NCBI GenBank assembly: GCA_963843795.1 | Contig: CAWJLW010000009.1 | Location: 62,001 to 86,941 of the forward strand | DNA from: an uncultured bacterium | GTDB lineage: Bacteria > Armatimonadota > Abditibacteriia > Abditibacteriales > Abditibacteriaceae | Direction: 5' to 3' | DNA length: 24,941 nt | In this document: positions 1,186 to 22,206 of the stretch, piece after piece | Layout of the letters: each line of letters begins with the position of its first letter | Numbering within the stretch: the stretch's first letter is position 1 | The notes under the pieces: model-generated | Databases searched by the model: none | Seen by the model: the letters and a program-made list of their open reading frames with translations, nothing else | Told to the model about the DNA's origin: nothing | Position numbers and translations under genes: made by a program

Positions 1186-2185
1186 TACCGCAACCGCGCT
1201 TATGGCCGCCGACAAAGGCTTGCTGGCGATGGACGAGAGTACTCCGACCTGCGACAAGCGTTTCGCTGCACTCGATATTCCGCAAACCGTCGAAATGCGC
1301 CGCGCTTATCGCGAACTGATTGTCACCACGCCCAAACTCGGCGAATCGATCAGCGGCGCGATTCTCTTCGATGAAACGATTCGCCAGCACACTAAAGAAG
1401 GCAAGCCGTTCGTGCAAGTACTTGCCGAGGCCGGAATTATTCCCGGCATCAAAGTGGACGCGGGCGCTAAAGATTTGGCCGGTCACGCGGGCGAAAAAGT
1501 CACCGAAGGTCTGGACGGGCTGCGCGAACGACTGGCCGAATACGCGCAAATGGGCGCGCGTTTCGCCAAATGGCGCGCGGTGATCGCGATTGGCGACGGC
1601 ATTCCCAGCCGCGCGTGTATCGAGGCCAACGCGCACGCTCTGGCGCGTTATGCCGCGCTGTGTCAGGAAGCCGAACTCGTGCCTATCGTCGAGCCGGAAG
1701 TTTTGATGGACGGCAATCACACGCTCGAACGTTGCGCCGCTGTAACTGACGAAACGCTGCACACGGTTTTCGATCAGCTTCACGTGCAAGGCGTGATGCT
1801 CGAAGGCATGCTGCTCAAGCCCAACATGGTCGTCGCGGGCTTGGATTGCCCGCAGCAGGAAAGTATCGAAACCGTCGCCGATGCGACGATGAATTGTCTT
1901 TTGCGCAACGTGCCCGCTGCCGTTGCGGGCGTGGCGTTTTTGTCGGGCGGACAATCCGCCGAACTCGCTTCGGCGCGCTTGAACGCGATGAACGTGCGCT
2001 TCAAATCGCGCTTGCCGTGGCCGCTGGCGTTCTCGTTTGCCCGCGCGATTCAGCAACCGGCGCTCGAATTGTGGCACGGCGATGAAAACAACGTCGCCCC
2101 AGCCCAGCAAGTACTTGCGTATCGTGCGAGCCTTAATAAGTTGGCACGGCGCGGCGAGTACTCTGCCAAAATGGAAACTTTATGA
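1163..2185 (+). CDS. Fructose-bisphosphate aldolase, class I
   Basis: Motifs [70 protein letters not shown] 1163 follows GGGAG and overlaps the xfp 3' end. Confidence 0.95.
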
Positions 2186-2850
2186 GCACAACCCAATGGC
2201 CTGCGCCACTGCGCCTTTATCTGATTCGACACGGCGAAACCGCGTGGTCGCTTTCGGGCCAGCACACCGGCCTCACCGACATTCCGCTCAACGCGCAGGG
2301 CAAAGAAGAAGCACGACAACTCGCGCCGCATCTGGCCAAAATTCCATTCGAGTATGTTCTAACCAGCCCGCTCCAACGGGCGCGCCAGACTTGCGCGTTG
2401 GTCGGTCTGGAAATCATGGCCGAAGTTGCACCCGATTTGGCGGAATGGAATTACGGCGATTACGACGGACAACGCACCGTGGACATTCAGAAAACACGGG
2501 CGGATTGGAATCTTTTTCGCGACGGTTGTCCAAACGGCGAAACACCGGCTCAGGTTTCTGAACGCGCGGATCGTCTTATCGCGCATCTTCGCACGCTCAG
2601 CGGAAATGTCGCGCTTTTCTCTCACGGTCATTTCGGTTGCGTTCTGGCCGCACGATGGATCGGTTTGCCGGTAATCGCCGGAGAAAACTTCTCACTCGAT
2701 ACCGCCTCATTCAGCATTTTTGGCTATGCGCCTCATCACCCTGAAGTTCCGGTCATCACGCTATGGAACGCTTCACAGGCGACGTTTGCGCCCTGGCTCG
2801 TTCAATCTTCAACGTCAGAAGATTCGCAAAAAGCGGTTGAATCAGAATGA
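2182..2850 (+). CDS. Histidine phosphatase / phosphoglycerate mutase family protein
   Basis: LIRHGET catalytic motif, HTGLTDIPL, LAEWNYGDYDG, FSHGH. ATGA overlap with the aldolase stop. Confidence 0.92.
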   Translation: MSTTQWPAPLRLYLIRHGETAWSLSGQHTGLTDIPLNAQGKEEARQLAPHLAKIPFEYVLTSPLQRARQTCALVGLEIMAEVAPDLAEWNYGDYDGQRTVDIQKTRADWNLFRDGCPNGETPAQVSERADRLIAHLRTLSGNVALFSHGHFGCVLAARWIGLPVIAGENFSLDTASFSIFGYAPHHPEVPVITLWNASQATFAPWLVQSSTSEDSQKAVESE

Positions 2851-3346
2851 ACGGTAACACCGTCCATCTGAATCGCGGCACGGTCGTTGGCGTGCGCGGC
2901 AGCGTCGTGGACGTTCGTTTCGACGAGCATTTGCCGTCGATTTATACCGTGTTGCACGCCGGTGAGAAGCGAGAAATCGTCATCGAAGTACTTGCACAGC
3001 GAGACGAGCATCATGTGCGCGGCATTGCACTCACACCAACGCAAGGCTTGGCGCGCGGCATGAGGGTCGAAGACACGGGCGCGCCGCTTCAAGCGCCGGT
3101 CGGCAAAGGCATTCGCTCGCGGATGTTCGATGTTTTCGGTATCGCCATTGACCGCGAAGGCGCGTTGTCCGATGTGCAATGGCGTTCGGTGCATCGCGCG
3201 CCGCCGCCTCTATCGCAGCGTTCGACCAAGTCGGAAATCTTTGAAACCGGCATCAAAGTGATCGATGTTTTGGTGCCCTTGGAACGCGGCGGCAAAGCCG
3301 GACTTTTTGGTGGCGCAGGTGTAGGCAAAACGGTTTTGCTCACCGA
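2847..3346 (+). pseudogene. atpD: F1 ATP synthase beta subunit (N-ATPase type), N-terminal fragment ending just after Walker A
   Basis: VRGSVVDVRF...[35 protein letters not shown]. Beta-subunit similarity stops abruptly at about 3346 and the sequence becomes atpA in another frame. Confidence 0.9.
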
Positions 3347-4016
3347 CGCGCTTATCGCGAACTGTCGTTGTTGCTGCGCCGCCCGCCGGGACGCGAAGCC
3401 TTTCCCGGAGATATTTTCTACATCCATTCGCGTTTACTCGAACGCGCCACGCATCTAAGCGCAGAACGCGGCGGCGGTTCGCTGACCGCGCTGCCGATTA
3501 TCGAAACCGAAGCGCAGAACATCTCGGCTTACATTCCGACCAACCTGATTTCGATCACCGATGGGCAGATTTATCTTTCTCCATCGCTTTTTGAACTGGG
3601 TGTGCTGCCCGCCGTGGATGTCGGCAAATCCGTCTCGCGCGTTGGCGGCAAGGCGCAACGCGCGCCTTATCACGCCGTGGCGGGCGCTTGGATGAGGACA
3701 CTCATAAAATCATCGAACACGGACAGCGCATCCGTGCCTGTCTCAAACAGCCTGAATTTCCCCAGCGTCGGTGCCCGCGCAAATCTCCGTATTGCTGGCA
3801 TTGGCCGAAAAACTCTTCGATGCCGTGCCGCTCGACCAAATGATTGACGCCGAAGCAGCCGTGCGCAAAGCAGCAGCGACCATTCCCGACGAAGTGCGCG
3901 CGCGTTTTGAAACCGCCGACAAGTTGAGCGACGAAGACCGCAAAACGATCATCGAAATCGCGCGCGAAGCACTGGTCCCGTTCCAGCTCAAACTGCAAAC
4001 CGAGGCTAAATCATGA
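3347..4016 (+). pseudogene. atpA: F1 ATP synthase alpha subunit, C-terminal fragment in three reading frames
   Basis: [34 protein letters not shown]...[15 protein letters not shown]...[10 protein letters not shown] in frame 2 to about 3685. Then [25 protein letters not shown] in frame 1 (3685-3759) after an apparent internal deletion. Then [14 protein letters not shown]... in frame 3 to the stop at 4016. No start codon or N-terminal half. Confidence 0.9.
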
Positions 4017-4915
4017 GCGATACCATCGAGAGTTTGCGCCAAAAAATCAGCAGCGCGAGCGATTTGCAATCGGGCGTTCGCAGCATGAAAGCGTTGGCCG
4101 CATCAAATATCGGACAATACGAGAAATCGGTGCTCGCTTTGGTCGATTACTATCGAACCGTGGAGTTGGGCCCGGGCGCAAGTTTTCGTGCCAGCGCACA
4201 TCTGGGAGCGCTCAAAGATACCAGAAAACCAGCCGCAACCATGGGCGCCGTCGTGTTCGGCTCCGATCAGGGACTGGTGGGCCGCTTCAACGATGTCGTG
4301 GCTGATTATGCCATTGAAACCCTGGCCGCGCGCGCTGGCAAAGCGCAGGTCTGGGCCGTCGGCGAGCGCGTTCAGGCGCGTCTGGCGGACGCCGGCTTAT
4401 CCGTAATGGAAACTTTCGCCGTGCCGAATTCGGTGCAAGGCATCACGCCGCTTGTCGGGCAAATTTTGGTGGCAAGCGAGGCGCGCCAAAATGTTAACGA
4501 AGAGAGCGAGCTTCACATTTTTCACAATCGCCCCACATCGAGCGCGGTTTACGAACCCACCAGCCAACGATTGCTACCGCTCGACGAAACCTGGCGCCGC
4601 GATCTCGTTGATCGTCCGTGGCCAACAAAGTACTTGCCGCCAGTACTTGCAAGTCACGCCGCGACTTTGCAGGCACTCATCCGCGAATATCTTTTCATCT
4701 CACTTTTTCGCGGTTGTGCCGAATCGCTCGCCGCCGAGAACGCCAGCCGTTTGGCGGCTATGCAGCGCGCCGACAAAAATATCGACGACCTGCTGGAAAC
4801 CCTCAACAGCGACTTTCATCAACTGCGCCAGAGTGGTATTGACGAAGAATTATTCGATGTCATTTCCGGCTTTGAAGCGTTGAACCATTCTTTTGCCTCG
4901 CTATCTGATTCCTAA
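4013..4915 (+). CDS. atpG: F1 ATP synthase gamma subunit (N-ATPase type), open frame but orphaned
   Basis: VRSMKALAAS, VFGSDQGLVGRFN, AESLAAENASRLAAMQRADKNI, RQSGIDEELFDVISGFEAL. ATGA overlap with the atpA stop. Confidence 0.92.
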   Translation: MSDTIESLRQKISSASDLQSGVRSMKALAASNIGQYEKSVLALVDYYRTVELGPGASFRASAHLGALKDTRKPAATMGAVVFGSDQGLVGRFNDVVADYAIETLAARAGKAQVWAVGERVQARLADAGLSVMETFAVPNSVQGITPLVGQILVASEARQNVNEESELHIFHNRPTSSAVYEPTSQRLLPLDETWRRDLVDRPWPTKYLPPVLASHAATLQALIREYLFISLFRGCAESLAAENASRLAAMQRADKNIDDLLETLNSDFHQLRQSGIDEELFDVISGFEALNHSFASLSDS

Positions 4916-5032
4916 AAGGGATCGATGTTTGCGTAAATTTATAAGCCTCTGCAAAAGCATTTGATAAGCCATAAAAATTCATGGTGATCTCCTCTACCCA
5001 ACCGAGCAATTTCAACTCGAACACTTTATAAA

Positions 5033-5104
5033 GTAAATACAGCAAAAAGTATAAACAGCTTGCTGTTAAAATGTTTTAACAGCAAGCTGCGAGAACAGTA
5101 AAAC
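5033..5104. repeat. Degenerate copies of the par 16-bp repeat downstream of the par operon, including a perfect 16-bp inverted repeat (5056-5071 / 5074-5089)
   Basis: 5033-5059 GTAAATACAGCAAAAAGTATAAACAGC matches 6427-6453 GTAAATACAGCAAAACGCTTAAACAGC at 24/27 positions. CAGCTTGCTGTTAAAA-TG-TTTTAACAGCAAGCTG is a perfect inverted repeat. GAACAGTAAAAC at 5093-5104 is another variant. May also act as a terminator. Confidence 0.8.
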
Positions 5105-5108: not shown

Positions 5109-5543
5109 TTACAGAGGGCCATATTTTTCGATAAGTAGATCGAGCGCTTCTTGAATTAGCTCAGACTTATCCGGTTTTTGCCCTGTACGCTGCCGCTCAG
5201 CCAGTTGAATCGCTTCGACTGCGAACACTTGATCAGGGCGAATATAAAGCGTCACTTTGGAAACTATGGGCTTATCGGCTTGAGCTTGTGGATTATTGAG
5301 AGCCGAAGGCTGATTGGGTTCTTCCGCATGTGCCTTAGAAGCGCTTTTTGATTTCGCACTCGGAATTATCTCACTTGCGGGCGCGGTTTCAGTTTGTAAC
5401 TGCTCGTTTGGAAGCTGTTCAGTATCTCCCTGCGCACTCTCTTTAATTTCCAATTCTTGGGGCGGTGAGGTGCTTTGAAAAATAGCGTCAATGCCTTTGG
5501 CGTCACCGGCCCGCCGCTCTCGTAATGATACACGTTTAGCCAC
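5109..5543 (-). CDS. Small ParA partner, putative centromere-binding protein (type Ib, ribbon-helix-helix-like C-terminus)
   Basis: Overlaps the parA stop; GTG at 5543 follows GAGGAGG. Basic N-terminus (AKRVSLRERR), long low-complexity linker, and a C-terminal strand-helix-helix pattern KVTLYI...KSELIQEALDLLIEKY. No ParB CTPase motif seen. Function inferred from position and pattern. Confidence 0.7.
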   Translation of the reverse strand: MAKRVSLRERRAGDAKGIDAIFQSTSPPQELEIKESAQGDTEQLPNEQLQTETAPASEIIPSAKSKSASKAHAEEPNQPSALNNPQAQADKPIVSKVTLYIRPDQVFAVEAIQLAERQRTGQKPDKSELIQEALDLLIEKYGPL

Positions 5544-6297
5544 GTTGCTCAACCTCCTCAGCCAGTTCGCGATACGCCACTGTTGCAGGAGATTGCGGCG
5601 TAAATTGCAGAATGGATTCGCCAGCCATCGCGCTGTCTTGCAATTTTACAGTTTGCGGAATTACGGTTGTAAAAACCTGATCGCCGTAAGTCGCCCGCAA
5701 TTCCTCAACGACTTCGCGCGCGTGCAAGGTGCGACCATCGAAAAGCGTCGGCAGAATACCCGCGATCACCAATTGAGGATTGATACGGCCGCGCACTTTC
5801 CCGATGGTTTGCATCAGCAAATCCATTCCGCGCATCGCGAAATATTGAGTCTGAACTGGAATCAGGACACGCGAAGCGGCTGCCAGGGCATTCAACGTCA
5901 ATAAACTCAACGAAGGTGGACAATCAATCAACAGATAATCGTAATCTTCCATCACGGGCATCAGCTTTTCTTTGAGAATGGTTTCTCGCCCCGGCTCGCT
6001 GACCAGCTCAAGTTCGCTGGCTGCCAGATCAATGTTGGCCGGAGCCAGCGAACACCCCGAGTCCGTTTTGATCACAATACGACCGAGATCGAAATCGGGT
6101 GTGCGCAACGCATCATAAATTGTCTCGTTTAATTTCAATGGGTCAACCCCAAGCCCCGCCGAAAGCGCGCCCTGCGGATCTAAATCAACCAGTAACACCC
6201 GATGCCCGCGCTCAGCTAAAGCGGCACCCAGATTAATCGTCGTTGTGGTTTTACCCACGCCACCCTTTTGCTGAGCAATGGCATATATCTGCTTCAT
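5536..6297 (-). CDS. parA: ParA/Soj family partition ATPase
   Basis: Deviant Walker A QKGGVGKTTT, LLVDLDPQG, YLLIDCPPSLSLLTLNALAAA. No N-terminal HTH. ATG 6297 follows GAGGAG. Confidence 0.95.
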   Translation of the reverse strand: MKQIYAIAQQKGGVGKTTTTINLGAALAERGHRVLLVDLDPQGALSAGLGVDPLKLNETIYDALRTPDFDLGRIVIKTDSGCSLAPANIDLAASELELVSEPGRETILKEKLMPVMEDYDYLLIDCPPSLSLLTLNALAAASRVLIPVQTQYFAMRGMDLLMQTIGKVRGRINPQLVIAGILPTLFDGRTLHAREVVEELRATYGDQVFTTVIPQTVKLQDSAMAGESILQFTPQSPATVAYRELAEEVEQRG

Positions 6298-6432
6298 GGT
6301 TGCTCTCCTCTTAAACAAAAATCTTGCTCAAAGCATTTTAAAAGCCCCGAGCTTTAGGCTTACTAATAGTAACTGAAATTCACTTCGCCACCATGGATTT
6401 ACATCATACGGTATTTACTCTTAAATGTAAAT

Positions 6433-6551
6433 ACAGCAAAACGCTTAAACAGCAAAACGCTTGAACAGCAAAACGCTTGAACAGCAAAACGCTTGAACAG
6501 CAAAACGCTTGAACAGCAAAACGCTTGAACAGCAAAACGCTTGAACAGCAA
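6433..6551. repeat. Tandem array of 16-bp units ACAGCAAAACGCTTGA (7 full + 1 partial), putative centromere/par operator
   Basis: Units start at 6433, 6449, 6465, 6481, 6497, 6513, 6529 and 6545 (partial). The first unit ends TTAA. No spacers. Lies about 135 bp upstream of the parA start. Confidence 0.9.
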
Positions 6552-6662
6552 GCGAACTGGGCACGTAGATTTATGCAAGTACTTGCAGGGCTGATCATTG
6601 ATTGAAAGTGGCGTGCTAGCCCTTAAAAAGCCGTCTTTTTGTCGCATTTCGTGCTCAAAGGC

Positions 6663-6992
6663 GCATAATTATGGGAGACGGGGTAGGAATATAGGCCAAA
6701 GCAATCAGCCAATTTTAGTTGATATGTAGCACCTCTTTTTGCTCTGCGCAGATGACAAAAGCGGAAAAGGGAAAATTTCTTCCAAAATTTGCAGTTTTGC
6801 GGCCCAAAAATCCAGATTTTTCGCCTTTAAGTGCATAATTACGGGAGACGATTGGAATTTCAAAGCCAATTTTAGGGTAGAGAAGAGTGCATAATTACGG
6901 GAGACAAGCGCATAATTACGGGAGACGGAGCGCATAATTACGGGAGACGGAGCGCATAATTATGGGAGACGAAGCGCATAATTACGGGAGAC
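6663..6992. repeat. Seven iteron-like direct repeats GCATAATTA(C/T)GGGAGAC, putative replication origin
   Basis: Isolated copies at 6663 and 6833, then five tandem copies at 6889, 6910, 6932, 6954 and 6976 (21-22 bp period, about two helical turns). A/T-tract-rich DNA lies at about 6755-6830, and the putative rep follows. Confidence 0.88.
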
Positions 6993-7231
6993 GATCGGAG
7001 TTTCAAAAAGGGCTGAATTCCTTAGCCTGTCTACTCTTTTGGTCAAGCGATTTTTGTTCCGACAGTACTTAAGACAGTACTAAGACAGCAGCAGACAGGG
7101 AAATTTCGCGTTTTTAGGACTCTTTGAGATTTCAACAAGAACTGTTGCTGCTGCTGTTTTTTTTCCATACTTCATCACCTGTTTCAATTGCTTGGGTGGC
7201 CGGTAATCACATCATCAGGCGTGTAGATATC

Positions 7232-8953
7232 ATGACCAAAGAGACACAGAACTCTAAAAAAAAGCCAAAAAAAATTCGCGATCAGTCGCTTCTTGAAAGC
7301 TCTGCGGCCAACGATCAGCCTGAAAAATTGAAAACTCGTGATGAAAAACGCAGAGATGATAAACGTAAAGACGATGCTTTGGCGGTACTCAGAACTGAAA
7401 CTGCACTTTCTCGCTTTCCCATGCATCGCCTCACCAAAGGCAAATCCGTCAAGATAGAAATCAAAAATCAGGCATCAGCAGTTTTCTGGAAAGTCAGCCC
7501 AAACGCCGATTACGGACAGCCAGGCGCTCTGGCTTACAAGCTCGATACGCTTTTCATTAATCGCCGTATCGAAGAAGCCGGACGGCCCACGCCCAAAACG
7601 ATTCGATTGGGCAGCCTGCGCGAGATCGCTGAAGAGATGGGTTTAGGAACAAACACCAACGCAGTCAAAGAAGCGCTTTTGCAAAACGCGACGGCCAGCA
7701 TCACTGCAAAAATTAATTACCGCACTCAAAACGATGGCGAGCAGTGGCTCGAAGCCGTTTTCAATCGCTACAGCTTGATTTTTACCGGCGAAAAGTTTCC
7801 TGATGGCGGCACTGCCGATGCGGTTCATCTGGTGCTCAACGACATTTATCAACAGATACTCAGTACTGCTGTCATTCGCCCGCTCGATTACGATTACATG
7901 AAGGCCCTGCCGCCGATTGCCCAGCGGTTTTACGAAATTGTTTCCTATCAAATTTACGCTGCAGTTCACTACGGAAACCCGCGCGCCAAATTGTTGTACT
8001 CCGATTATTGCCTGCTTTCCACAGCAACGCGTTACTTCGACTTCGATCACGTCAAAAAACAGATGTACAAAGTTTTGCGCCCCCACACGCAAAGTGGGTA
8101 TATCGCAAAAGTCGAGTACGAAGCCATCATAAATGACAGGGGCGAGGCCGATTGGCAGATGTTATTCACGCCCGGTCCTAACGCCGGGCGCGAGTATCAG
8201 GCATTCACTGGAATTGGCAAGACGCGCAAACCTCGCGTCCGAAAAGCCGATAAAACCCAGAAAACCGCTCAAAAAACGGCGCCCGACCTTGTTTTACCTT
8301 TCGATGACGGCATAGCAGAAGAAAAAGCGCCCGAAAGCAAAGTCGCCAATTCATCGGACAGTAATTTGCCTGAGTTGGTTGAGCAATTGGTATCCGCTCA
8401 ACTTAATCGCGGCGATGCCGAGCGTTTCGCGCGCGACAGGCCGGACGAGTGCCGCCGTCAGCTCGAGTTTTTGCCACACGTCAAAGAATTTAAAACCAGT
8501 CAGGGAGCTTATTTACGGCGTGCCATCGAAGAAAGTTACGGGCCGCCCAAAGGCTACACGCAAAATCATGCGCGCGCCGAAGCCGCTCAGGTCACCAAAC
8601 AGCAAAGCATAGATAAACGCTCTGAAGACGAGCGCACAAAGGCCCGTCAGAGCCACCAGAATCGCTATTACGGGGTTTATTTGGATTATGTGATGGAAAG
8701 GGTAGGGGAAGCTGAAAAAGCGCAGCCAGAGGCATTTATGGAGTTCCAGCGCTCTGAAACCGAGGAGCGGCGCAAATTGACCAGCGGCCCCTTCGCTGGA
8801 CGTCCGCTCTCACAAAAAGCGTTGGAAGTCTTCGACCAGCAGGCGATTCGGGTAGAGCGGGCACGCAATTTTTGGCGCGGGCGCGGCCAAGAAATTCTCG
8901 ATTTTTGGGCTTGGGACGAAAAGTTCAATGATTCTTCTTTTGATCGCACATGA
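7232..8953 (+). CDS. Putative plasmid replication initiator protein (573 aa)
   Basis: Long ORF directly downstream of the iterons and divergent from parA. Basic N-terminus; the segment RTETALSRFPMHRL...YGQPGALAYKLD...LGSLREIAEEMGL...RPLDYDYMKALPPIAQRFYEIVS resembles winged-helix Rep initiators. ATG 7232 preferred over TTG 7124. Family not firmly recognised. Confidence 0.75.
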   Translation: MTKETQNSKKKPKKIRDQSLLESSAANDQPEKLKTRDEKRRDDKRKDDALAVLRTETALSRFPMHRLTKGKSVKIEIKNQASAVFWKVSPNADYGQPGALAYKLDTLFINRRIEEAGRPTPKTIRLGSLREIAEEMGLGTNTNAVKEALLQNATASITAKINYRTQNDGEQWLEAVFNRYSLIFTGEKFPDGGTADAVHLVLNDIYQQILSTAVIRPLDYDYMKALPPIAQRFYEIVSYQIYAAVHYGNPRAKLLYSDYCLLSTATRYFDFDHVKKQMYKVLRPHTQSGYIAKVEYEAIINDRGEADWQMLFTPGPNAGREYQAFTGIGKTRKPRVRKADKTQKTAQKTAPDLVLPFDDGIAEEKAPESKVANSSDSNLPELVEQLVSAQLNRGDAERFARDRPDECRRQLEFLPHVKEFKTSQGAYLRRAIEESYGPPKGYTQNHARAEAAQVTKQQSIDKRSEDERTKARQSHQNRYYGVYLDYVMERVGEAEKAQPEAFMEFQRSETEERRKLTSGPFAGRPLSQKALEVFDQQAIRVERARNFWRGRGQEILDFWAWDEKFNDSSFDRT

Positions 8954-9252: not shown

Positions 9253-9294
9253 CGAGAAAAATGCCCAGCAAGTACTTGCTGGGCATTTTTCTCG
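9253..9294. terminator. Perfect 42-bp palindrome centred on GCAAGTACTTGC, probable bidirectional terminator
   Basis: CGAGAAAAATGCCCAGCAAGT|ACTTGCTGGGCATTTTTCTCG, 27 bp downstream of the GH5 stop, between convergent rep and GH5. Gives a GC-rich stem followed by TTTTT on either strand. Confidence 0.7.
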
Positions 9295-10437: not shown

Positions 10438-10735
10438 GGGAGCAAGTGAGTCAATCGAATTTATCGGGCTGTGTGCACAGAACGTAAATATTATACCCAC
10501 GGGCGCAAAGTCCAAACGCCCAGGCGTGAATTAAAGGCGATGTCTCCAAAACCACCGTTTCCCAGATTTTGTTGTTGACTGTATTCTTTAGGGGAGGAAA
10601 AACCGACTACGGGGCACCTGTTGTGCCTCGCTGCGTTCGGAATAAAATTCTTTCATTGAGGAATTTCTATTGAGTTTCCATTGCAGCGAAGTATTCGGCG
10701 CTGCAAGTACTTGCAGGGTTGAAAAACACAAAATT

Positions 10736-11734
10736 ATGAAAAATAGACTGTTGGGAAGTTCGGACACAACCGTTTCAGAGATCGGTTTGGGTACCTGGCA
10801 AATTGGCGGTTCGTGGGGCGAAGTGAGCGAAAAGGAAGCACTGGACATTTTGCAAGCAGCTGCGCAAAACGGCGTCAACTTTTTCGATACCGCTGATGTT
10901 TACGGCGATGGGCGCAGCGAAAAACTGATTGGCCAGTTTCTACGTGACAGCGATCTGCGCGAGGACGATGAGAAAATCTTTGTCGCCACTAAATTAGGAC
11001 GGGGCGGCGATCCGGGTTGGCCGGAGAATTTCACACTTTCTGCGATGCGGCAGCACACGCAAAATTCTTTGGGACGTTTGGGCGTTTCCTGTCTCGATTT
11101 GACACAGCTGCACTGTGTACCGACTGAGGTTTTGCGCGACGGAGAAATTTTTGAGCATCTGCGCACTTTACAAAGTGAAGGCTTGATTCAGCGCTTTGGA
11201 GCCAGCGTCGAATCGAATGAAGAAGCGCTGATTTGTTTGCAGCAAGACGGTTTGGCTTCGTTGCAAATCATTTTCAATATTTTTCGCCAGAAACCGATTG
11301 ATGAATTGTTCCAGCGCGCACAAGAAAAGGGCGTGGCGATTATCGTGCGTTTGCCGCTGGCCAGCGGTTTGCTTTCAGGAAAATTCGACAAAAATACGCA
11401 ATTCGACAAAGACGATCATCGTAATTTCAACCGCGACGGCGACGCTTTCAACGTTGGCGAAACTTTCGCCGGTTTGCCCTTCGAACTGGGCGTCGAATTG
11501 GCCGATCAATTGAAAAGCCGCGTGCCCGATAACATGACAATGGCACAAATGGCGTTGCGCTGGATTTTAGATTTTCCGGCTGTGACGACGATTATTCCGG
11601 GCGCCAGTCGCGTTTCGCAGGTAGAATCGAACGTTTCGGCCAGCGAACTCGCGCCATTGAGTGAAACCTTGCACGCCGAGTTACGCAGTTGGTATCGGAA
11701 TAATGTCGCGGACAACATTCGCGGGCCGTATTAA
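10736..11734 (+). CDS. Aldo/keto reductase
   Basis: SEIGLGTWQIGG, NFFDTADVYGDGRSEKLIG, FVATK, LDLTQLH, RLPLASGLLSGK, IIPGAS. Confidence 0.95.
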   Translation: MKNRLLGSSDTTVSEIGLGTWQIGGSWGEVSEKEALDILQAAAQNGVNFFDTADVYGDGRSEKLIGQFLRDSDLREDDEKIFVATKLGRGGDPGWPENFTLSAMRQHTQNSLGRLGVSCLDLTQLHCVPTEVLRDGEIFEHLRTLQSEGLIQRFGASVESNEEALICLQQDGLASLQIIFNIFRQKPIDELFQRAQEKGVAIIVRLPLASGLLSGKFDKNTQFDKDDHRNFNRDGDAFNVGETFAGLPFELGVELADQLKSRVPDNMTMAQMALRWILDFPAVTTIIPGASRVSQVESNVSASELAPLSETLHAELRSWYRNNVADNIRGPY

Positions 11735-11756: not shown

Positions 11757-11808
11757 TGCCACATTATCAGGCCGCTGCAAGTACTTGCAGCAGCCTGATA
11801 ATGTGGCA
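11757..11808. terminator. 52-bp near-perfect palindrome centred on GCAAGTACTTGC, possible terminator
   Basis: TGCCACATTATCAGGCCGCTGCAAGT|ACTTGCAGCAGCCTGATAATGTGGCA with one mismatched pair, 22 bp after the AKR stop, between convergent genes. No clear U-tract on the + strand. Confidence 0.55.
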
Positions 11809-13359: not shown

Positions 13360-14021
13360 TGGACTTCACCCGCTAATGTGGACAATCAGTTAAGCATAGC
13401 TTTCTCGTAATCGTGTGGGCTAATGATGAATACGGGGACTGCCTTAGCGCCCTTTGTTCTCGTGAAAAACGAACTGATGTGGGCGACTAGCTTCTTCGTG
13501 TGCTGGGCACGCTGGCTTAGGGGCCGTTTCTGCCATTGATAAAAGGCGCTTCTGGTTACTGCTGTCACTCGCAGCAGAACGCTTATCTGAAACTGTCCTT
13601 GATGCTGTAAAGATAGCGCATCTCCTTCGTCACCGGCTTGGCTGAGAGCCGGGTGACCGTAAGCGGGCAGCGCTGATGGCTGACGGTAAGACTTCTCGCT
13701 CCTGGCGCAGCACTTCGTTTTCACGTCGCAGTCGCGACAGTTCTTCATCTTGGGGTTGTCCTTGACCGGGAAAAGCTTTCTGGCCGTTTTGCTGGGCATC
13801 TTTTTTCTTTCTACTGACCATATTGTCGTTCAAGCCAAAGTCTCGTGACACTTGGGCGATGCTCAAACCCCTTTCTGTGACTAGGCGGACAGACAAACCG
13901 CTTCACGTTTGAACTCGCTGCTGGGTGGTTTGCGTTTGGTTGGCTTGTGTTGCACTCGCATAATGGCTCCTGTGGTTCCAGTTTCTCTTTTTCAACTGTC
14001 CGCATTTGCGGATGAGTGCCA
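13360..14021 (-). mobile_element. Internally deleted, non-autonomous IS3-family element (662 bp)
   Basis: Imperfect 25-bp terminal inverted repeats (13360-13384 and 13997-14021, 19/25 match, TG...CA ends). Frameshifted OrfA from ATG 13961: SSEFKREAV / RLVTERGLSIAQVSRDFGL...ELSRLRRENEVLRQEREVL. OrfB start (VTRSAFYQWQKRPLSQRAQ) is joined directly to the OrfB end (SPHDYE) with no DDE core. No clear target-site duplication. Confidence 0.85.
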
Positions 14022-14184
14022 GTTCTACCATCACCCAGTGCGGATGAGAAATCGATGCAGTGACCGGTTTCTCACGCCTGAAATTATTACAAAGCGCTTT
14101 GCAGCAATAGCCTACACTTCAAAGGTGCTGCAAGTACTTGCAAAGTAATACTTGTGGAGAATTGCCGGGAAGGTTGAACAACCG

Positions 14185-17100
14185 ATGGGATTTTGGCACA
14201 TTGAGCTTCTGGGTGGATTGCGCGCTTATTCACTCAGTGAGGGTGGGGACGAGGGCACTGGTAAAACCGTGCGTTTTCGCACTCATAAAACTGGCGCGTT
14301 GCTGGCGATGTTGGCGTTTTATCGGCGTCCCCTGTCGCGCGAGGTGTTAATCGACGAGCTGTGGCCCGATGCCGCGCTCGAAACTGGACGCAATAATTTG
14401 CGCATCGCCTTGTCTTCGCTGCGCCGCCAATTGGAACCGTCGCCTTTGGAAGCTGGTTCGGTGATCGTGAGCAATCGGGCCAATATCGCGCTGAGTTCGG
14501 CTTTGGTGACGACTGATGTAGCCGCCTTTGAAAGCGCGTGTCGCAGCGCACAAAATTTGGCCCGGACGCTGCCCGATAATTTGGCGCGCAGCGATGCAGC
14601 GGCGTTGCTGCCGTTGCAACAGGCGTGGCAAAGCGCGTGTGATGCCTACAGTGGTGCGCTACTGCCAGGCTTTTATGAGAACTGGATTTTACCACAGGAG
14701 CAACGTTTGGAGGCACAGTTCGCGCGTGCTGTGCGGGCTTTGATCGAACTGTGCCATGAACGTCGCGATACGACGGCCTGGCTGAATGCCGTGCAGCGCG
14801 GGCTGGAAATCGAACCTCAAAACGCTGACTGGATCGAGGCCTCTGCCCAGGCGCGCCACAGGCCAACCCTTGCCCCACAACTCTCACTGGGCGCTGTATC
14901 GAGCGCGCCTATTTCTCCTGCGCAGGCTTCGCTGGCCGGTGAAGCGCCGCTGCTGGTTTTGCCACCGCAGTGGACACCTTTTGTCGGGCGCCAGAACGAA
15001 ATGGCGCAGCTCGAAGCACTGCTGCGGCAACCTTCCACGCGCTTCGTAACTTTGTGGGGAGCCGGTGGCAGTGGCAAAACTCGCCTCGCCATCGAAACCG
15101 CACGCGCTCTGGACGAAAATCATCGGGTCGGCAAAACGTTGTCGGCTGCGCACAACAGCGATTTCACGGCGATTTATTTCGTGCCTCTGACTACGGTGCA
15201 AACAGTAGAAAGGCTCGCCGCAGCGATAGTGACCGCTGCGAACAATCGGGAAGCGCTAGTGAACAGTGAAACGGGCACTGCAAGTACTTGCTGGGACGAT
15301 TTGGCGCTTTTGCTCAATGGGCGTCGCGCGTTGTTGATTCTCGATAATTGCGAACAACTGGCGCCCGAGTGCGGCGATTTCCTGGAAACTTTGCTGGAAC
15401 GCTGGCCGCAAACTACGCTGCTGGCCACGTCGCGCCGTTTGTTGCGCACGCGCGGTGAACAGGTGCTGCTACTGGCGTCGCTGGCTTGCCCAGCGGCGAA
15501 CGCCAACACGTTGACACCTGGGGAAGCGATGGATTGCGAGGCGGTGCGTTTATTTGTCGAACGCGCGCGCGCGGTGCGCGCCGATTTCGCCCTCACACCG
15601 CGCAACGTGGAAATTATTGCCGAACTGGTGCGGCGCTTGGAAGGTTCACCGCTGGCCATCGAATTGGCCGCAGCGCGCGCCGGGGTTTTGTCGCCGCAGG
15701 CCATGTTGAAACAATTGCAAACTCCGCTACAATTTCTTACCCGCCGTGCCTCAGCTCCGTCTATCAGTGTAGCGGCCAGCAATTGGGGCACGGACAGCGA
15801 GCGCGAACGGGCGCGTCATAGTGGTTTGCGCGCCTGTGTGCAGTGGAGCTTCGATTTGCTCAATGCGCCGCTGCAACAAGTGTGGGCGCAACTGGCGATT
15901 TTTCGCGGCGGCTGGACGCTGGACGCCGCGCGCGTCGTGTGTTTGGACAACAGCGATGAAGCACGCGCTCTCGATGCCCTGGACACTTTGCGCGATGCGT
16001 CGATGATCGAGATTATTAGTCATGCCGACGAAACACCGGTGCGTTTTTCGATGCCAGAAACCTTGCGCGAGTTCGCCCACTCGCGGCTCAGCGAAACGCA
16101 ACACGCCGCTCTGGAAGCGCGGCACAGCGCGTATTTCGTCGCGCTCGCGGAGCGTCACGAAACCCAATATAATGCGACCGGCGAATGGGGGCTGGACCAA
16201 GCGAGCGAGCCCGAACTCGAACTTCCCAACTGGCGCGCCGTATTTGAACGCGCCGCTTTCGAGAGTGCCGCGGCAAACGGTGCTTCCTCATCCGAAATGC
16301 ACGAAAACGTGTTGCGTGTGTTGGGAGCGCTCTGGTGGTTTTGGTCGTTGCACGGCCATCTGCGCGAGGGCCGCAGCTTGACCACGCATTGGCTGCCCGA
16401 TCCGGATGCGTCTTGTGCTGATGAAGCAAGTCGGGAAACCATGCACATTTGGGCCCGCGCTCAGAGTAGCGCGGGTGCCGTGGCGTTCCACGTTGGTGCC
16501 GGCGCCGAAGCGCAACGTCGCATTCGGGTCGCGCAAGCGTTGTGGGAGAAATCGGGCGATGCGCTCAGCGCGGCGGGCGCGTGGAATTATCTGGGGTCTG
16601 TAGCCTTAGCGCAAGGAGAATTCGCTGCGGCGCGGTCGCACTATACGACCAGTTTGCGGCTGTATGAGCAATATCCCACACCTGCAGAGCCGGACGCACG
16701 GCACTTAGCCATCGCGCTCAGTTGCCTGGCCAGTGCCGAATACGCCGCCGCCGATTATATGGCGGCGCGCGAATGCATCAAACGAGCACGCCCGTTTTGG
16801 GATGAAAGTGGAAATCGTGGTGGACAGGGCTGGCTGCTGTCCATTGAAGGTTGGATAGCCGAAGCCAGTGAAGAGTGGCTCACTGCGCGCGCCCTGCACG
16901 CGCGCGCTCTGGAATTGCGCAGCACCGCCGCCCCGCGCAGCATCGCCAACGCTCGAGCCGATGTCGCGCGCGTGGCTGCCGCTCTGGGCCATGATGACCA
17001 AGCGCGCACTGGTTGGCAGGAAAGTCTGCGCAATCATTGGGAAAATGGTCGCACCTCCGACGCGTTGCCCTGCCTGGAAGGCGTGGCCAGCGTCTTTGAT

Positions 17101-17319: not shown

Positions 17320-17459
17320 CCCCACCAGGGAAGCGCGGACGCAGAAAATCTAGAATTCTGTAACCGAAGTCGCGTTGTGCTTGACGTCGTGCTTCAATCA
17401 TAGGAAAGGGCCACTGCAAGTACTTGCAGAGCAGACAAAGGAAATTTTGTTGGTTTTAT

Positions 17460-17518: not shown

Positions 17519-17602
17519 GGAATTGTTTTCTCCCACATGAAGATAAAAATGCCCTGCAGATACTTGCAGGGCGACGGCGATGAGGGAAGAAGGAGAAATT
17601 TT

Positions 17603-20600
17603 ATGAAGAAGTGGCAGGGTATTTTTCTTTTGCTGTCGGCAGTCATTTTGTCATTGAGCCGTTCTGTCGAGGCGCAATCACCGGCGACTACGGTTTCGAT
17701 TACGTCACCCAAAGCGGGCGCGACGGTCGTCCAAAGTACTTTGGCGCTCCCGTTTGGAAGCGCCGCGTCATCGAGTGGTGTGCGCGATGTCGTGCTACTT
17801 TTGCAGCGCAACACCGGAACAGGAATTTTGTGTTGGGATGGACACCTGTGGAGCAACACAACCGCGGTTGTGAGCGCTGATTACAATGCTCTAAGCCATT
17901 CGTGGCAATGGCCGATGGACGTGGCTTTGCCTTCTGGCAAGAGCCTGGCGCAAGGCCGTTACCGCTTACAGGCTGTGGCGCGTGCTGCTAACCATAGCAT
18001 AATCGGTCGAACCACCAGCGATTTCGCGGTGCAGCCCGCTGCGGGCCTCACCAAGAGAGATGCGCCGTCCAACGATAATGTCAGCCGTGCCATAAGAATT
18101 GAAGGGGAATCGGGCACGACAACGGGCACCAATGTGGGCGCGACCGGCTCTCCCACCAACCCAAACCTGAATGACGTGTGGTGGCGGTGGCACGATGACT
18201 ACGCCGATGGGCAAGTGACCTTCGACACCACCGGTTCGACTTTCGACACCTACCTTCAAGTTTTCGAGGAAACAGTCGACTACTCGACAGCGCCACCGAC
18301 CGCGACGCTGATGCCTATGGGTTCGGACGACAACGGCGGCGGCGGAACCGCCTCACAGGTCACGTTCAGTGGCAAGTTCGGCAGCGAATATGTGATCGCG
18401 GTCAGCGGCATGAACGGCCAAAGCGGGGACATCACATTGAACTGGGCACGCGGGCAAGTTGTCACACCGACCGCCCCCGCCAACGATAACATCGCCAACG
18501 CCATTCCTATCAGCGGCGTGAGCGGAAGCGTGACTGGGACGAGTGTGGGAGCCACGGGCGATTGGCCCGATTCAAATAACCCCGCAGCCAACGTGTGGTG
18601 GGTGTGGACATCGCCGGGCAACGGCACAGTTTCCTTCAATGCTACCGGATCAAACTTTGCGACCTACATTAACGCTTACTCCTCGACTAAGGCGCTTATT
18701 ACGGCGCGCGCTGGGAGCATCAGCTTTATGGTGGCTGCGGGTCAGAGATACTTTATCTCGGTGAGCGGTGTGGCCGCCGCTGTCGGCGACATCACACTGA
18801 ACTGGAACACGAGCGCCGCGTCGGCCCCTGCCAACGATTTGCCATCGCGTGCCACCACCATCTCCGGGGCAGCGGGCACGATCGCGGGCACCACGGTCGG
18901 CGCGAACGGCGAAGGGATTGATAATGCGAAACTGGGCGGCCCCAACGTGTGGTATGCGTGGACAGCACCGGGCAACGGCGCCGTGACATTTGATACTAAA
19001 GGCTCCGGCTTCGACACCTTCTTGCGCGTGTTTGCACAGCGCATGGACACCCCAAGTACTTTCGACTTTGTTGGGCAGGACGACGATAGTGGCGGCGCTG
19101 CCGCCGCGCTGCTCAAGTTCAACGCAGTGTTGGGCAAGCGCTACCTGATTTCGGTAGGCAGCCGGTACTCGGAGAGCGGGGCGATCAAGCTCAACTGGAC
19201 TTCCAGCCTTTTGTCTGGCCCAACCAACGATCTACCCCAAAACGCCACGGCGATCAGCGGCCTATCAGGATCAGTTGCAGGCACTAATGTCGGCGCTCAT
19301 GGCGAAGGGCCTACTGGAACCGCGACCGACATGTCAAACGTATGGTGGAAGTGGACGCCGCCGCGCCCTGGCGCCGCGACCTTCGACACCAAAGGCTCGG
19401 CCATCGACACCGTCTTACGTATCTACCGTATTGCTCCCACGACGGGCACTCAAGTCCAAATACTTAACGTCGGCGAGGACGATAACGGAGGCGGTGGAAC
19501 GGCTTCGCAGCTGATATTCGACGCCACTCCCGGTACAAGTGCGGGCAGCTACTACCTGATCTCGGTGGCCAGTAAAACCAGCGCGACCGGAGCTATCAGA
19601 TTGAACTGGAGTTTGGGCGCCCCCGCCGATGTCACGGGCTTCGTGCGTGACAAAGCAGGCAGGGGCATGGCCGATGTCCTTATGTTCTTGGTCTCGGGCG
19701 ACTCAATTGACCCCATTTTGTTTGATCAGGTACCGGGCGGTCCAATACAAGTTACTCATACAACCGCGAATGGTTCTTATGGATTTAGCGGCCTCAAGCC
19801 CGGCAAGTACTCAGTTGTGCCAGCCAAGCCGGGTACACTTTTCTCGCCCCGCGTTCGAGTGTTCACTAAGACAACTACCAGCACGCCATTCACCACAGTG
19901 GACTTCAGCGCGCTGGGCACTGATATCCTCGGTCCGGTTCTTTCAGACACCGAGTTGGCAGCTGGCGACGAAACCGCCAACGGCATTAAGGTGCCGGGCG
20001 GAGTTGGTGGCGCAGTGATCGATGCCAGCGGCATCAGCGGTCAGCGATCTGCGGGCGTGCTTTATGTGGGTTTTTATCTACAAAAGCTCAAGGGCGACGC
20101 GGCCAGTCTGAAGCTTGCCCCAAGCCAGCGTGGCGTGTTGGGCACTTACTCCAAACGCAGCAGAGGTTTCGTCAGTACCGCTGCCAATGCGGTTCCGATG
20201 CGCGACAGCGATAAGGTTTTTCTTACCTCAGAGCACAGCGGGCATTGGAGCAGCGTGTTTGATGCTGATGTAGAAAAGGCGCTCGCTTCGCCCGGCACCT
20301 ACCGCATCGTGACCTTTGCCATTGATGCAGCCTTCAATTACAGCCTGAACTCCCGTACTTCAATGGACCCGGACGTGCCCGCAGGCGCACAGGTCACGTA
20401 CTTACATTTCGAAGAAAAGGCGGCCAATATGGTCGTTACGCGCACGCTCCCGATCTCGGCTCCCAATGGTAAATTCATCAGTTATCTGATCTCGGTCACG
20501 AACACTGGTGACTTACCCTTGCAGAATGTGAGTGTGATCCAAACGCTTAACACACAAAAGACCGTTCTGGTGGGCACCAGCATCTCGCCGCGTCCGGCTG

Positions 20601-21568
20601 TCATCAACGCTTACGGCATCATTTGGAAGTTCGCCACCATTGGCGCGCACAGTTCTCAGGTGCTTTCTTTGCAAGTCGAGGCCAAGGAAAACAACCCGTT
20701 CGGCTCGAATATCGCCGCCGGGCAGTTGGATGTCTCATCAAGTGGCGGAGTCGCTCGCTTTGCGCATGACCAGATTAATATCGAATCCAGCACTTGGCTC
20801 ATCGGTGGCGCGCTCAATGCCCTACGCGGACTGGGCGACGCCATCGGGCGCGGCTTCAACTACGTCTTCAATTCGAGCGTACGCGACCAGCGCGCCCAGG
20901 CCGACTTGAACACTATTAAAGCTGGAACGGGCGTGACGCGCGTCACCGGAGCCGATGTGTTGACCTTTGGCAACGGCGCTCTGTTGGTGGCGAGTGGCGG
21001 CGGCAACGTGCTGGCGATTGGGCCAAGTAACTTAGTAGCGAGCGGTGGCGGCAATTTAGTCGCTTCGGGTGGCGGCAACTTGGTCGCGAGCGGCGGCGGG
21101 AACTTAATTGCGATTTCGGGGATCAGAGCATCGAACATCCTGAACCAACTCATCAACAACCCCGCCAGCCTGCTGGCGTCGAACTCGCCTTTTGCACCGG
21201 CTTTACTGGGCGCAAACTTAGTGGCGAGCGGAGGGGGCAACTTGGTCGCGAGTGGTGGCGGCAACTTGGTTGCAAGCGGCGGCGGGAACCTGCTGCCGGG
21301 CAGTGTCGCGTTGTTCGTGGACAACAATAGTGGGCTGCTGGCGAAGAGCGGCCTACAGCTCCTTTCGCAGGATGGCGGCGGCCTTATCAGCACCAAGCTT
21401 ATCACGCAGGATGGTGGTGGGCTGATCTCGCAAGACGGCGGGGGAGCCATCAATTTGAATGGAACCAACCTGCTGGCGGGCAAAGGCAATAGCCTGATTA
21501 GCGACCGTGGTGGCAGCTTGGTGGCCAGCGGTGGCGGCAACCTGATTAGTCAGGACGGCGGTGGTTGA
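17603..21568 (+). CDS. Large secreted multidomain repeat protein (1321 aa)
   Basis: AAGGAG before ATG 17603; signal peptide MKKWQGIFLLLSAVILSLSRSVEA. Four ~115-130 aa PPC-like beta-sandwich repeats, an SdrD-B/carboxypeptidase-regulatory-like domain (GFVRDKAGRGMADV...NGSYGFSGLKPGKYSVVP), a DUF11-like domain (ISYLISVTNTGDLPLQNVSV) and a Gly-rich octapeptide repeat tail. Confidence 0.85.
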   Translation: MKKWQGIFLLLSAVILSLSRSVEAQSPATTVSITSPKAGATVVQSTLALPFGSAASSSGVRDVVLLLQRNTGTGILCWDGHLWSNTTAVVSADYNALSHSWQWPMDVALPSGKSLAQGRYRLQAVARAANHSIIGRTTSDFAVQPAAGLTKRDAPSNDNVSRAIRIEGESGTTTGTNVGATGSPTNPNLNDVWWRWHDDYADGQVTFDTTGSTFDTYLQVFEETVDYSTAPPTATLMPMGSDDNGGGGTASQVTFSGKFGSEYVIAVSGMNGQSGDITLNWARGQVVTPTAPANDNIANAIPISGVSGSVTGTSVGATGDWPDSNNPAANVWWVWTSPGNGTVSFNATGSNFATYINAYSSTKALITARAGSISFMVAAGQRYFISVSGVAAAVGDITLNWNTSAASAPANDLPSRATTISGAAGTIAGTTVGANGEGIDNAKLGGPNVWYAWTAPGNGAVTFDTKGSGFDTFLRVFAQRMDTPSTFDFVGQDDDSGGAAAALLKFNAVLGKRYLISVGSRYSESGAIKLNWTSSLLSGPTNDLPQNATAISGLSGSVAGTNVGAHGEGPTGTATDMSNVWWKWTPPRPGAATFDTKGSAIDTVLRIYRIAPTTGTQVQILNVGEDDNGGGGTASQLIFDATPGTSAGSYYLISVASKTSATGAIRLNWSLGAPADVTGFVRDKAGRGMADVLMFLVSGDSIDPILFDQVPGGPIQVTHTTANGSYGFSGLKPGKYSVVPAKPGTLFSPRVRVFTKTTTSTPFTTVDFSALGTDILGPVLSDTELAAGDETANGIKVPGGVGGAVIDASGISGQRSAGVLYVGFYLQKLKGDAASLKLAPSQRGVLGTYSKRSRGFVSTAANAVPMRDSDKVFLTSEHSGHWSSVFDADVEKALASPGTYRIVTFAIDAAFNYSLNSRTSMDPDVPAGAQVTYLHFEEKAANMVVTRTLPISAPNGKFISYLISVTNTGDLPLQNVSVIQTLNTQKTVLVGTSISPRPAVINAYGIIWKFATIGAHSSQVLSLQVEAKENNPFGSNIAAGQLDVSSSGGVARFAHDQINIESSTWLIGGALNALRGLGDAIGRGFNYVFNSSVRDQRAQADLNTIKAGTGVTRVTGADVLTFGNGALLVASGGGNVLAIGPSNLVASGGGNLVASGGGNLVASGGGNLIAISGIRASNILNQLINNPASLLASNSPFAPALLGANLVASGGGNLVASGGGNLVASGGGNLLPGSVALFVDNNSGLLAKSGLQLLSQDGGGLISTKLITQDGGGLISQDGGGAINLNGTNLLAGKGNSLISDRGGSLVASGGGNLISQDGGG
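18062..19609 (+). repeat. Four tandem protein domain repeats (PxND...G.NVGA...VWW.W...TFDT.GS.FDT...DD.GGG...Y.ISV...G.I.LNW)
   Basis: Units start at about 18062, 18473, 18824 and 19217. The motifs are conserved in translation; the second unit lacks the DDxGGG segment. Confidence 0.85.
20984..21565 (+). repeat. C-terminal octapeptide repeats: 8 x LVASGGGN, 4 x L(I/L)(S/T)QDGGG, 1 x LISDRGGS
   Basis: Counted in the translation. Codons differ between copies, and the last repeat runs directly into the stop codon. Confidence 0.95.
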
Positions 21569-22206
21569 AAGTGACGCCAGAATTGGTAACGCCAGAATTG
21601 GCAACGGCACGGCGAGCATCTGCTCGCCGTGCCGTTCTGCGTTGGAGAATGGAGATAGAGTGCCACTATGTCCAACAAGACTGGTGCATCTCTTTCGAGA
21701 GGGAGAGCTAAATTGGAATCAAATCACAGTGACCGTGACCTTGTATCCCAAGCTCATCCCACTTGACATACGAGGTTTTGGGTTTGATTTTGTGGAGAGA
21801 TCTGGGAAGTCTAGTCGTTCAGGCTCGAGTGAGGCCTGAGTGTGTTGTATCCGTGCCGCCCGTTTTCGATGATCTCTTGGACACTTCTCAGATCGAACAA
21901 TCATTCGGGGCTCAAACATTTCTGCTCAAAGATTTTCTGGTCGGGTAGGAGTGCCTAGACATTTATTTTGTTGATAGTTGTTAAGCGTGTTGAGGATCGT
22001 GAGAACCTCCATGAGCGACCAACAACCAATTCAAACGAGCGCTCTTGCGCTCCACGGCACATAGAGCCGCCGTGGACGGCAAACCCTTGGCACGTTGGCA
22101 TTCATACTGGTCTTTGAACGGAGAATGAACTGTCACAATAGTAAGGGCCGCAAGTACTTGCGGTAGCCATGTTGTCTTCCCATTGATACATTGAGCGCTT
22201 CCGATG

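Follow-up and report, generated by a model that had tools for sequence, protein, structure and literature searches.

A hyper-abundant AGTAC-core palindrome and its dialects in Abditibacteriaceae: a candidate DNA uptake signal

Word-specific DNA uptake has been described from two proteobacterial families (bioRxiv 10.1101/2025.10.24.684340; here and below, statements on published systems follow the accessible parts of the cited texts). The DNA uptake sequence (DUS) of Neisseria meningitidis occurs in 1,892 copies, 34.5% of them in open reading frames (ORFs; PMC2817400), and about 1,500 nt lie between units in Neisseria (PMC2397512). For both the DUS and the uptake signal sequence (USS), enrichment falls steeply from perfect to mismatched copies (PMC1939737), and the DUS dialects of Neisseriaceae are built around CTG (PMC3630211). 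ComP and ComN are the dedicated DNA-binding minor pilins of these systems (PMC12616744), and the accessible text on the Haemophilus influenzae USS describes short AT-tracts only, near the core (PMC7811141, PMC2817400). Methylation enters two further systems: RAATTY/CtsM of Campylobacter jejuni, in which a palindromic adenine-methyltransferase target marks self DNA for uptake (PMC10046745), and the cyanobacterial highly iterated palindrome HIP1 (GCGATCGC), reported to raise transformation when methylated (PMC13756078). Here we analyze a palindromic 12-mer, GCAAGTACTTGC, noticed in 24,941 nucleotides of DNA (the window) from an uncultured bacterium of the family Abditibacteriaceae, phylum Armatimonadota (GCA_963843795.1, contig CAWJLW010000009.1, positions 62,001 to 86,941).

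The chances seem to us evenly balanced that this 12-mer is the species dialect of a self-DNA signal with an AGTAC core, that is, a DNA uptake sequence built up by molecular drive and possibly marked by methylation. We favor this because the match to DUS and USS, 9-12-bp words with hundreds to thousands of copies per genome, extends to copy number (thousands), spacing (one unit per 1-1.5 kb), gene share (about a third, with a tripeptide bias), mismatch profile (perfect copies far above mismatched ones), origin by substitution (gain at permissive codons), dialects around a short core, and inverted terminator pairs. AT-tract flanks, absence from recent islands and the presence of competence genes are further likenesses. 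The differences are that the word occurs here in another phylum, that its core is a probable methyltransferase target, that helical phasing runs about seven turns to each side, that no ComP/ComN-like basic pilin was found, and that any uptake role is read from genomes alone. Despite DUS-like genomic behavior we do not file the word as a DUS, because no receptor was found among the candidates tested and uptake itself is something we infer.

Other systems share parts of the pattern. HIP1 and alternate HIPs are likewise hyper-abundant palindromes that arose by substitution, lie in genes and spacers, contain an orphan methyltransferase site and replace one another between lineages. A periodicity of 10-90 kb along the chromosome is a further trait of HIP1-like words. 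The word described here differs in its length (12-16 bp vs 8), its A/T-containing core and its marked preference for intergenic DNA and terminators. Here the methyl target by itself is depleted, whereas on our own reading of the HIP literature it is enriched in HIP, whose variants are all palindromic; asymmetric dialects of the present word occur in genome G006 and metagenome locus L085. The C. jejuni signal is also a palindromic adenine-methyltransferase target, but in that system the signal consists of the 6-bp methyl site and nothing more, whereas here a 4-bp target is extended into species dialects. SlmA sites are 12-bp palindromes with an AGTACT centre, few in number, that avoid the terminus; here there is no terminus exclusion, and a TetR/SlmA reader was rejected after no TetR protein was found in the source genome or G006. 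Chromosome marking of the matS, SlmA or Noc kind, one parallel drawn in an earlier note on the window, is not supported, given the lack of origin or terminus bias and of a TetR protein in the source genome (MatP and Noc lay outside the search).

Abundance, spacing, origin and anatomy of the word

The 12-mer is the commonest of its length in the source genome (G000; 4.30 Mb, 11 contigs, the window being the end of contig C9), which the names of close homologues of one gene also assign to the Abditibacteriaceae. We found 2,567 perfect copies, on all 11 contigs, where an order-4 Markov model trained on motif-masked sequence expects 0.2. Observed and expected counts at zero, one and two mismatches are 2567/0.2, 506/6.6 and 371/118, respectively. 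There are 751 coding copies, whereas five synonymous-codon shuffles give 1-4, and each of 40 relatives holds 0-3 copies of the exact word. The earlier note, which was made from the window's letters, had proposed a lineage-specific, genome-wide signature rather than the operator of one local regulator, to be checked against Markov or codon-shuffled nulls, and these counts bear it out.

Most copies are intergenic. On gene calls from our own dicodon model (3,491 genes, 86% coding), which make these counts approximate in an assembly with frameshifts even in tuf, 1,797 copies (70%) are intergenic, 751 (29%) are coding and 19 lie across a gene end. Spacers longer than 40 bp hold about 0.6 copies each, independent of length, and occupancy is alike in convergent, tandem and divergent spacers. 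The motif recurs every 1-3 kb in the ribosomal-protein superoperon, and 264 copies sit in divergent promoter spacers. A copy lies within 100 bp of 23 of the 47 tRNA genes, none of which has one inside, and there is no pile-up beside the rRNA operon.

Copies are spaced more evenly than random. The 3.62-Mb contig C6 carries 2,279 of them with a mean gap of 1,575 bp. All round the chromosome each 100 kb contains 47-83 copies, except for the first bin, which is rich in islands and has 30; this density bears no relation to the parS cluster or to the switch in GC skew. Short gaps, of 100-500 bp, are scarce (262 observed, 479 expected). Dispersion was measured at 2-50 kb; at 5 kb the variance/mean ratio is 0.56, against 0.75 when coding copies are shuffled and 1.67 when both classes are. 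Coding copies fill gaps, their density rising from 0.075 per kb near an intergenic copy to 0.46 per kb at a distance of 2-3 kb, and clusters of six or more per kb are absent from G000. Density falls from 63 copies per 100 kb on C6 to 7-56 on the smaller contigs, those of plasmid type being thinner, and the two largest motif-free holes, of 26 kb each, are islands of insertion sequence (IS) and restriction genes. Absence from such islands and thinness on plasmid-type contigs count in favor of uptake.

The coding copies arose mostly by substitution, as alignments to orthologues in the stretches compared show: they mostly replace residues at variable positions, without a gap. On our reading of the alignments, 1 of 25 sites in G000, and about 8 of 50 in its congener G001, have a gap among the codons of the motif. 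At 3 of the 17 G000 sites aligned to G001, the congener has its own dialect at the same codons. All three frames are used (115, 144 and 492 copies). The motif supplies 115 of the 133 ASTC peptides in the genome, whereas permutations of ASTC occur 1-15 times.

Sites share an extended consensus of A-tract, GC-rich stem, CT-GCAAGTACTTGC-AG, GC-rich stem and T-tract. The flanks had been called unrelated in the earlier note; they in fact have in common a preference for a GC-rich stem, an A-tract at a distance of 13-16 bp from the centre and, farther out, AA/TT in phase. To either side of the centre these dinucleotides peak at distances of 14, 24.5, 35, 45.5, 56, 66.5 and 77 bp, a period of 10.5 bp that is absent at control A-tracts. 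Phasing is kept at 544 copies deep inside genes (power 612, null maximum 32). For these copies the interval of 40-90 bp alone gives a power of 113 against 75, a value that 0 of 60 nulls reach. Moreover, 212 independent close motif pairs are in phase at 10.4 bp, with a Rayleigh z of 21 that none of 2,000 jitter nulls attained.

Many sites are the centres of longer palindromes. G000 contains 620 perfect palindromes of at least 24 bp. The motif forms the centre of 565, and a tandem of motif copies that of 17, with arms that vary from site to site. Symmetric double mutants at some centres indicate that arm-to-arm sequence correction is active. The motif is contained in 433 of the 624 terminator-like hairpins 3' of genes, and palindromes of at least 28 bp include 63% of the copies in convergent spacers vs 8% of those in divergent ones. 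Termination is not the whole role of the motif, as copies also occur in divergent spacers, in the ribosomal superoperon and near tRNA genes. Separately, G000 has about 38 loop-less perfect palindromes of 24-66 bp without the motif (e.g., C6:132394 and C6:2533364), among them four TATATA-centred ones clustered just 5' of a parA gene (C4:10140-10330). The motif-free palindromes possibly reflect genome-wide symmetrization of arms, and the C4 cluster is a possible plasmid origin.

Dialects and a probable GTAC methyltransferase in the family

AGTACT or GTAC, the core suspected in the earlier note, is the part conserved across dialects. AGTACT occurs 3,241 times in G000, 3,117 in G001, 4,150 in G009, 4,733 in G012, 3,453 in G015 and 2,813 in G019. 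By comparison, its counts span 1-285 across the remaining 21 genomes of the family and 25-1,094 in four further genomes of the class. Words with an AGTAC core are carried by 7 of 27 family genomes, at about 2,600-4,700 copies each. The dialect is CAAAGTACTTTG in G001, TCGAGTACTCGA in G009, G015 and G019, and CGAGTACTCG in G012; asymmetric forms are AGTACGGTCGA in G006 and AAAGTACGCC in locus L085 (8 inverted pairs plus singles). Among 80 metagenome loci, 17 were scored as carriers (one on a single site), with AAAAGTACTTTT, GGAGTACTCC, ATGAGTACTCAT and mixed forms.

G006 has 2,779 matches to AGTACGSYS vs about 320 for the control. Its word, AGTACGGTCGA, occurs singly and as inverted pairs between A and T tracts, with 23 pairs among 75 words; these pairs sit in terminators, like those of Neisseria uptake sequences. 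We rejected a Chi site, an asymmetric word with a leading-strand bias, as the G000 word is palindromic and the unpaired G006 words show no strand bias (14 on the plus and 15 on the minus strand, a small sample from one contig of unmapped replichore). The G006 form AAGTACGGT (L166, L167, L209; G006:C14) is one base off the H. influenzae USS core AAGTGCGGT (PMC3630211), a likeness that may be due to chance, convergence or common descent.

A second asymmetric word, ACGTGGCTG, occurs in 2,717 copies in G016, 557 in G007 and 506 in G018, vs about 30 for the control. The (GGA)CGTGGCTG(GTG) word was seen in three genomes of genus g2 that avoid GTAC (L173 = G016:C8:100001-120000; L192-L193 in G018; L168-L169 in G007), both singly and in inverted pairs spaced 24-32 bp apart, and its G016 form holds GCTGGTG, near E. 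coli Chi. Some non-carriers have patches rich in a carrier dialect: G017 (L055, L056; contigs C26, C50) in the G001 type, and G024, with 9 of its 18 AGTACT on one 7.8-kb contig (L175, C98). Such patches are either islands acquired by transfer or contigs binned wrongly. Samples of 6-60 kb from 17 other family genomes showed no dispersed abundant word but are too small to establish absence; G025-G028 were searched with fixed patterns only. Beyond the class, a scan of viral sequences with a 16-mer gave 6 single matches, and one of GTDB with an 18-mer gave at least 7 single matches in unrelated taxa, a result compatible with other carriers. Titles and the openings of abstracts, the literature covered (supplements and subscription papers fall outside this scope), contain no account of a CAAGTACTTG repeat or of AGTACT dialects.

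A methyltransferase of the GTAC type is present; to look for a co-distributed methyltransferase had been proposed in the earlier note. G000 has one N6/N4 methyltransferase match, with a DPPY motif, and homologues occur in 22 of the 27 family genomes, including all 7 carriers; two non-carrier copies contain stops. We take GTAC as its target because homologues have PabI-family neighbors and their loci are depleted in GTAC. The PabI-family genes adjoin the homologue in 5 loci (2 checked, both PF09522). Of 40 non-carrier loci at least 7 kb long, 18 have GTAC as their most depleted 4-mer; the median observed/expected ratio (O/E) is 0.345. PabI systems have GTAC as their target (PMC4615327). The G000 enzyme is a probable orphan GTAC adenine methyltransferase, and six neighbor queries found no cognate GTAC nuclease in that genome. 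It is insufficient for the motif: many relatives possess the enzyme yet avoid GTAC (O/E 0-0.18 in samples), and GTAC is depleted in G000 outside the motif (O/E 0.61).

The neighborhoods of the homologues vary. A protein of about 210 aa without a Pfam match lies convergent on the methyltransferase in 11 metagenome loci and G017 (L076:2640-3272, L153:4552-5199, L174:9147-9752), and is probably an undescribed GTAC restriction endonuclease. The PabI-family genes of L107, L112, L114, L119 and L120 accompany a beta-type methyltransferase (DPPY before FxGxG); the partners of PabI are gamma-type in the accessible text of PMC4615327. In the 27-28 loci L094-L146, the methyltransferase is fixed as an orphan between genes that resemble, and that we presume to encode, the large and small subunits of acetolactate synthase.

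A proposed uptake signal weighed against its rivals

Genes for DNA uptake are present in G000: ComEC, ComEA, DprA, secretins and a type IV pilus locus. In the assembly, pilC and one minor pilin gene are split, which we ascribe to read errors because tuf is split too. If the species is competent, a machine of type IV pilus, ComEA and ComEC might, via a putative receptor, favor fragments with the word in a bendable, A-tract-phased setting. Same-species DNA would then replace resident alleles, and point mutations toward the word would be fixed where tolerated. The gain would end once a fragment of about 1.5 kb holds a copy, giving even spacing. Terminators might co-opt the word as a ready hairpin, with arm-to-arm copying keeping hairpins perfectly symmetric. 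In the cell, the orphan methyltransferase probably methylates adenine in the GTAC core, a mark that may in turn be read. Molecular drive is said, by Maughan et al. in 2010, to give even spacing, and gap-filling is a prediction of drive by fragment uptake.

Several observations weigh against uptake. The competence genes and pilus locus look alike in carriers and non-carriers, with no carrier-only gene in the pilus locus among 21 genomes, which have the same genes. The carriers' main pilus locus has no extra or basic pilin, although no search with ComP or ComN themselves was run; the sole basic one among 58 prepilins proved a frameshift artefact. No receptor or reader was found among the candidates tested, most of the 3,491 genes lying outside the Pfam scan. 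The methyltransferase also occurs in 15 non-carrier family genomes and does not explain motif carriage, and a quick methyltransferase tree and three single-gene trees do not place the carriers in one clean clade, although they may yet be one. The geometry of the sites raises further difficulty. The full palindrome is required (GCAAGTACT occurs 2,740 times vs 2,567 full sites), and most dialects here are palindromic, whereas the cited DUS/USS consensus words are non-palindromic in the accessible text (PMC3630211). Phasing extends to about 77 bp on both sides with close pairs in helical phase, and the one fixed spacing of all 23 G006 pairs suits a dimeric protein.

The same geometry leads to the explanation that we consider possible, though clearly less probable than uptake: a cytoplasmic protein with two-fold symmetry, either a nucleoid protein or gyrase acting with an adaptor, which would wrap or bend about 150 bp per site and form a lattice of nodes every 1.5 kb. 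Such a protein would account for AA/TT phasing that control A-tracts lack and that persists deep inside genes, and for close pairs in helical phase. The E. coli gyrase motif, with BIME-2 among the closest known systems, is likewise symmetric, about 130 bp long and flanked by periodic signals, although it is degenerate and has no fixed 12-mer (PMC6379681), and HIP1 has been linked to chromosome structure (PMC5861425). Proteins of this kind were sought and rejected as readers: PF00808 histones are found in 0 of 31 class genomes; GyrA/ParC is in one copy in 4 of 5 genomes tested, and a single HU is found in 5 of 5 (ordinary HU only in an Atlas look-up), in both cases in carriers and non-carriers alike. 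The similar occupancy of spacer classes, the lack of a pile-up beside the rRNA operon and the lack of TetR also stand against a wrapping protein, and the model would lack a drive to rewrite thousands of sites between congeners. A more specific version is in our view doubtful, namely that a non-histone Abditibacteriaceae protein wraps about 150 bp at each methylated AGTAC word in a nucleosome-like lattice, the word having been rewritten several times within the family. One further candidate is a family-specific tandem AP2-like protein (G000 C6:1248447-1248965, L266, and C6:2124483-2125010, L284), below the Pfam cut-off and without a PDB match, that occurs in 18 of 31 class genomes. It was rejected as reader, being present in 7 of 7 carriers but also in 11 non-carriers, with strand residues that do not follow the dialect. 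Plasmodium AP2-G binds a GTAC motif. All 18 AP2-like genomes have the GTAC methyltransferase, and the AP2-like protein was not found in the 5 family genomes lacking it (kin are not independent).

The remaining explanations each capture a part of the pattern. In a HIP1-type ratchet, methyl-directed repair or a restriction-derived enzyme at GTAC would resolve mismatches toward the site, with no benefit needed. Elhai's model ties HIPs to such enzymes (PMC4390886), all 7 carriers have the orphan methyltransferase with its probable GTAC target, and the symmetric double mutants at palindrome centres would be sequence correction at work. We nevertheless judge a ratchet improbable: non-motif GTAC is depleted in G000, many owners of the enzyme avoid GTAC, and a 4-bp target does not yield dialects of 10-16 bp, gap-filling, one copy per spacer and 150-bp phasing. 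An RNA signal, with the terminator loop read by a termination or RNA-binding factor, fits the share of terminator-like hairpins that contain the motif and the excess of long palindromes in convergent spacers; it is very improbable in view of the 751 copies in genes in all three frames, those in divergent promoter spacers and within the ribosomal-protein superoperon, and a helical phasing that is a property of duplex DNA. The least probable explanation, and one largely refuted, is a family of repetitive extragenic palindromes (REP, or REPIN) or miniature inverted-repeat transposable elements (MITE) spread by a transposase. In its favor, the motif is palindromic and most copies lie between genes, tandem copies form the centres of 17 long palindromes, and a few coding copies align to gaps. 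Arms are site-specific, however, coding copies are mostly substitutions, and dense clusters are lacking. A REP-associated tyrosine transposase was also rejected, as G000 has a lone, weak Y1 transposase match with no cluster of the motif, and G006 yielded no match at all. Of the three origins put forward in the earlier note, biased uptake thus fits best and a dedicated binding protein second, none being proven, and methylation-linked repair alone fits poorly; its view that the word is not the end of a MITE or REP family stands.

If the 12-mer is an uptake signal, Abditibacteriaceae would be a third family with DUS-type dialects, and one that joins the word-specific and the methyl-dependent modes of uptake. 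If a wrapping protein is responsible, the word points to a novel DNA-wrapping chromosome protein. An uptake role would also make the long-standing question of HIP1 testable by comparison, among close relatives with a palindromic, an asymmetric, a different or no word. Dialects are also species tags that could serve the binning of soil metagenomes and the spotting of transferred islands, and would guide the design of DNA for transforming hard-to-culture Abditibacteriaceae.

The word and its neighbors in the window

All ten perfect copies lie where the earlier note had placed them, seven intergenic and three in genes (Table 1). Near copies exist as well, though fewer than the approximately seven noted: there are five at up to two mismatches, one with one mismatch (4639) and four with two (2984, 4626, 17556 and 19052). 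Matches at up to two mismatches total 15 in the window, against 1.19 expected from 100 dinucleotide shuffles, the largest of which gave 5. Contigs of three soil runs placed on 19.9 kb of the window yielded nothing usable at motif sites.

Table 1. Perfect and near copies of the 12-mer in the window
Feature	Position	Context
Perfect copy	1414..1425	Within class I aldolase gene; reads VQVLA
Perfect copy	2107..2118	Within class I aldolase gene; reads QQVLA
Two-mismatch copy	2984..2995	Within reading frame presumed to be ATP-synthase-beta-like
Near-copy pair, 13 bp apart (2 + 1 mismatches)	4626..4650	Within gene presumed to be ATP-synthase-gamma-like
Perfect copy	6575..6586	Divergent spacer between parA (5536-6297, -) and RepA-like gene (7232-8953, +)
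42-bp perfect palindrome around the 9268-9279 copy	9253..9294	A and T tracts; convergent spacer; bidirectional terminator type
Perfect copy	10703..10714	Intergenic, shortly 5' of gene starting at 10736
Perfect copy	11777..11788	Intergenic; mid-point of 18-bp palindrome 3' of stop codon
Perfect copy	14130..14141	Intergenic
Perfect copy	15280..15291	Within AAA/TPR regulator gene; reads ASTCW
Perfect copy	17416..17427	Intergenic
Two-mismatch copy	17556..17567	Usual flanks (A-tract, CCCT ... AGGG); probably a decayed site
Two-mismatch copy	19052..19063	Within large secreted-protein gene; may be due to chance
Perfect copy	22150..22161	Intergenic

The contig that ends with the window (C9) is probably a plasmid-type replicon, judging from ParA and weak RepA-like genes: a partition and replication block at 5109-8953 comprises the genes of ParA and of a RepA-like protein that matches PF10134 weakly, together with a small gene. 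Between parA and rep, the translation of a minus-strand ORF (6399-6647) is a peptide repeated three-fold, which suggests tandem, iteron-like DNA repeats. Positions 1-4915 hold phosphoketolase, class I aldolase and phosphoglycerate-mutase-like genes, along with remnants, higher in GC, of the beta, alpha and gamma genes of ATP synthase, the first two of which are truncated or fused; this is probably a decayed N-ATPase island. A segment at 13386-13900 resembles a remnant of the IS3 family. The large secreted protein encoded at 17603-21568 has repeated beta-rich domains and a C-terminal run of ASGGGNL/SQDGGG repeats.

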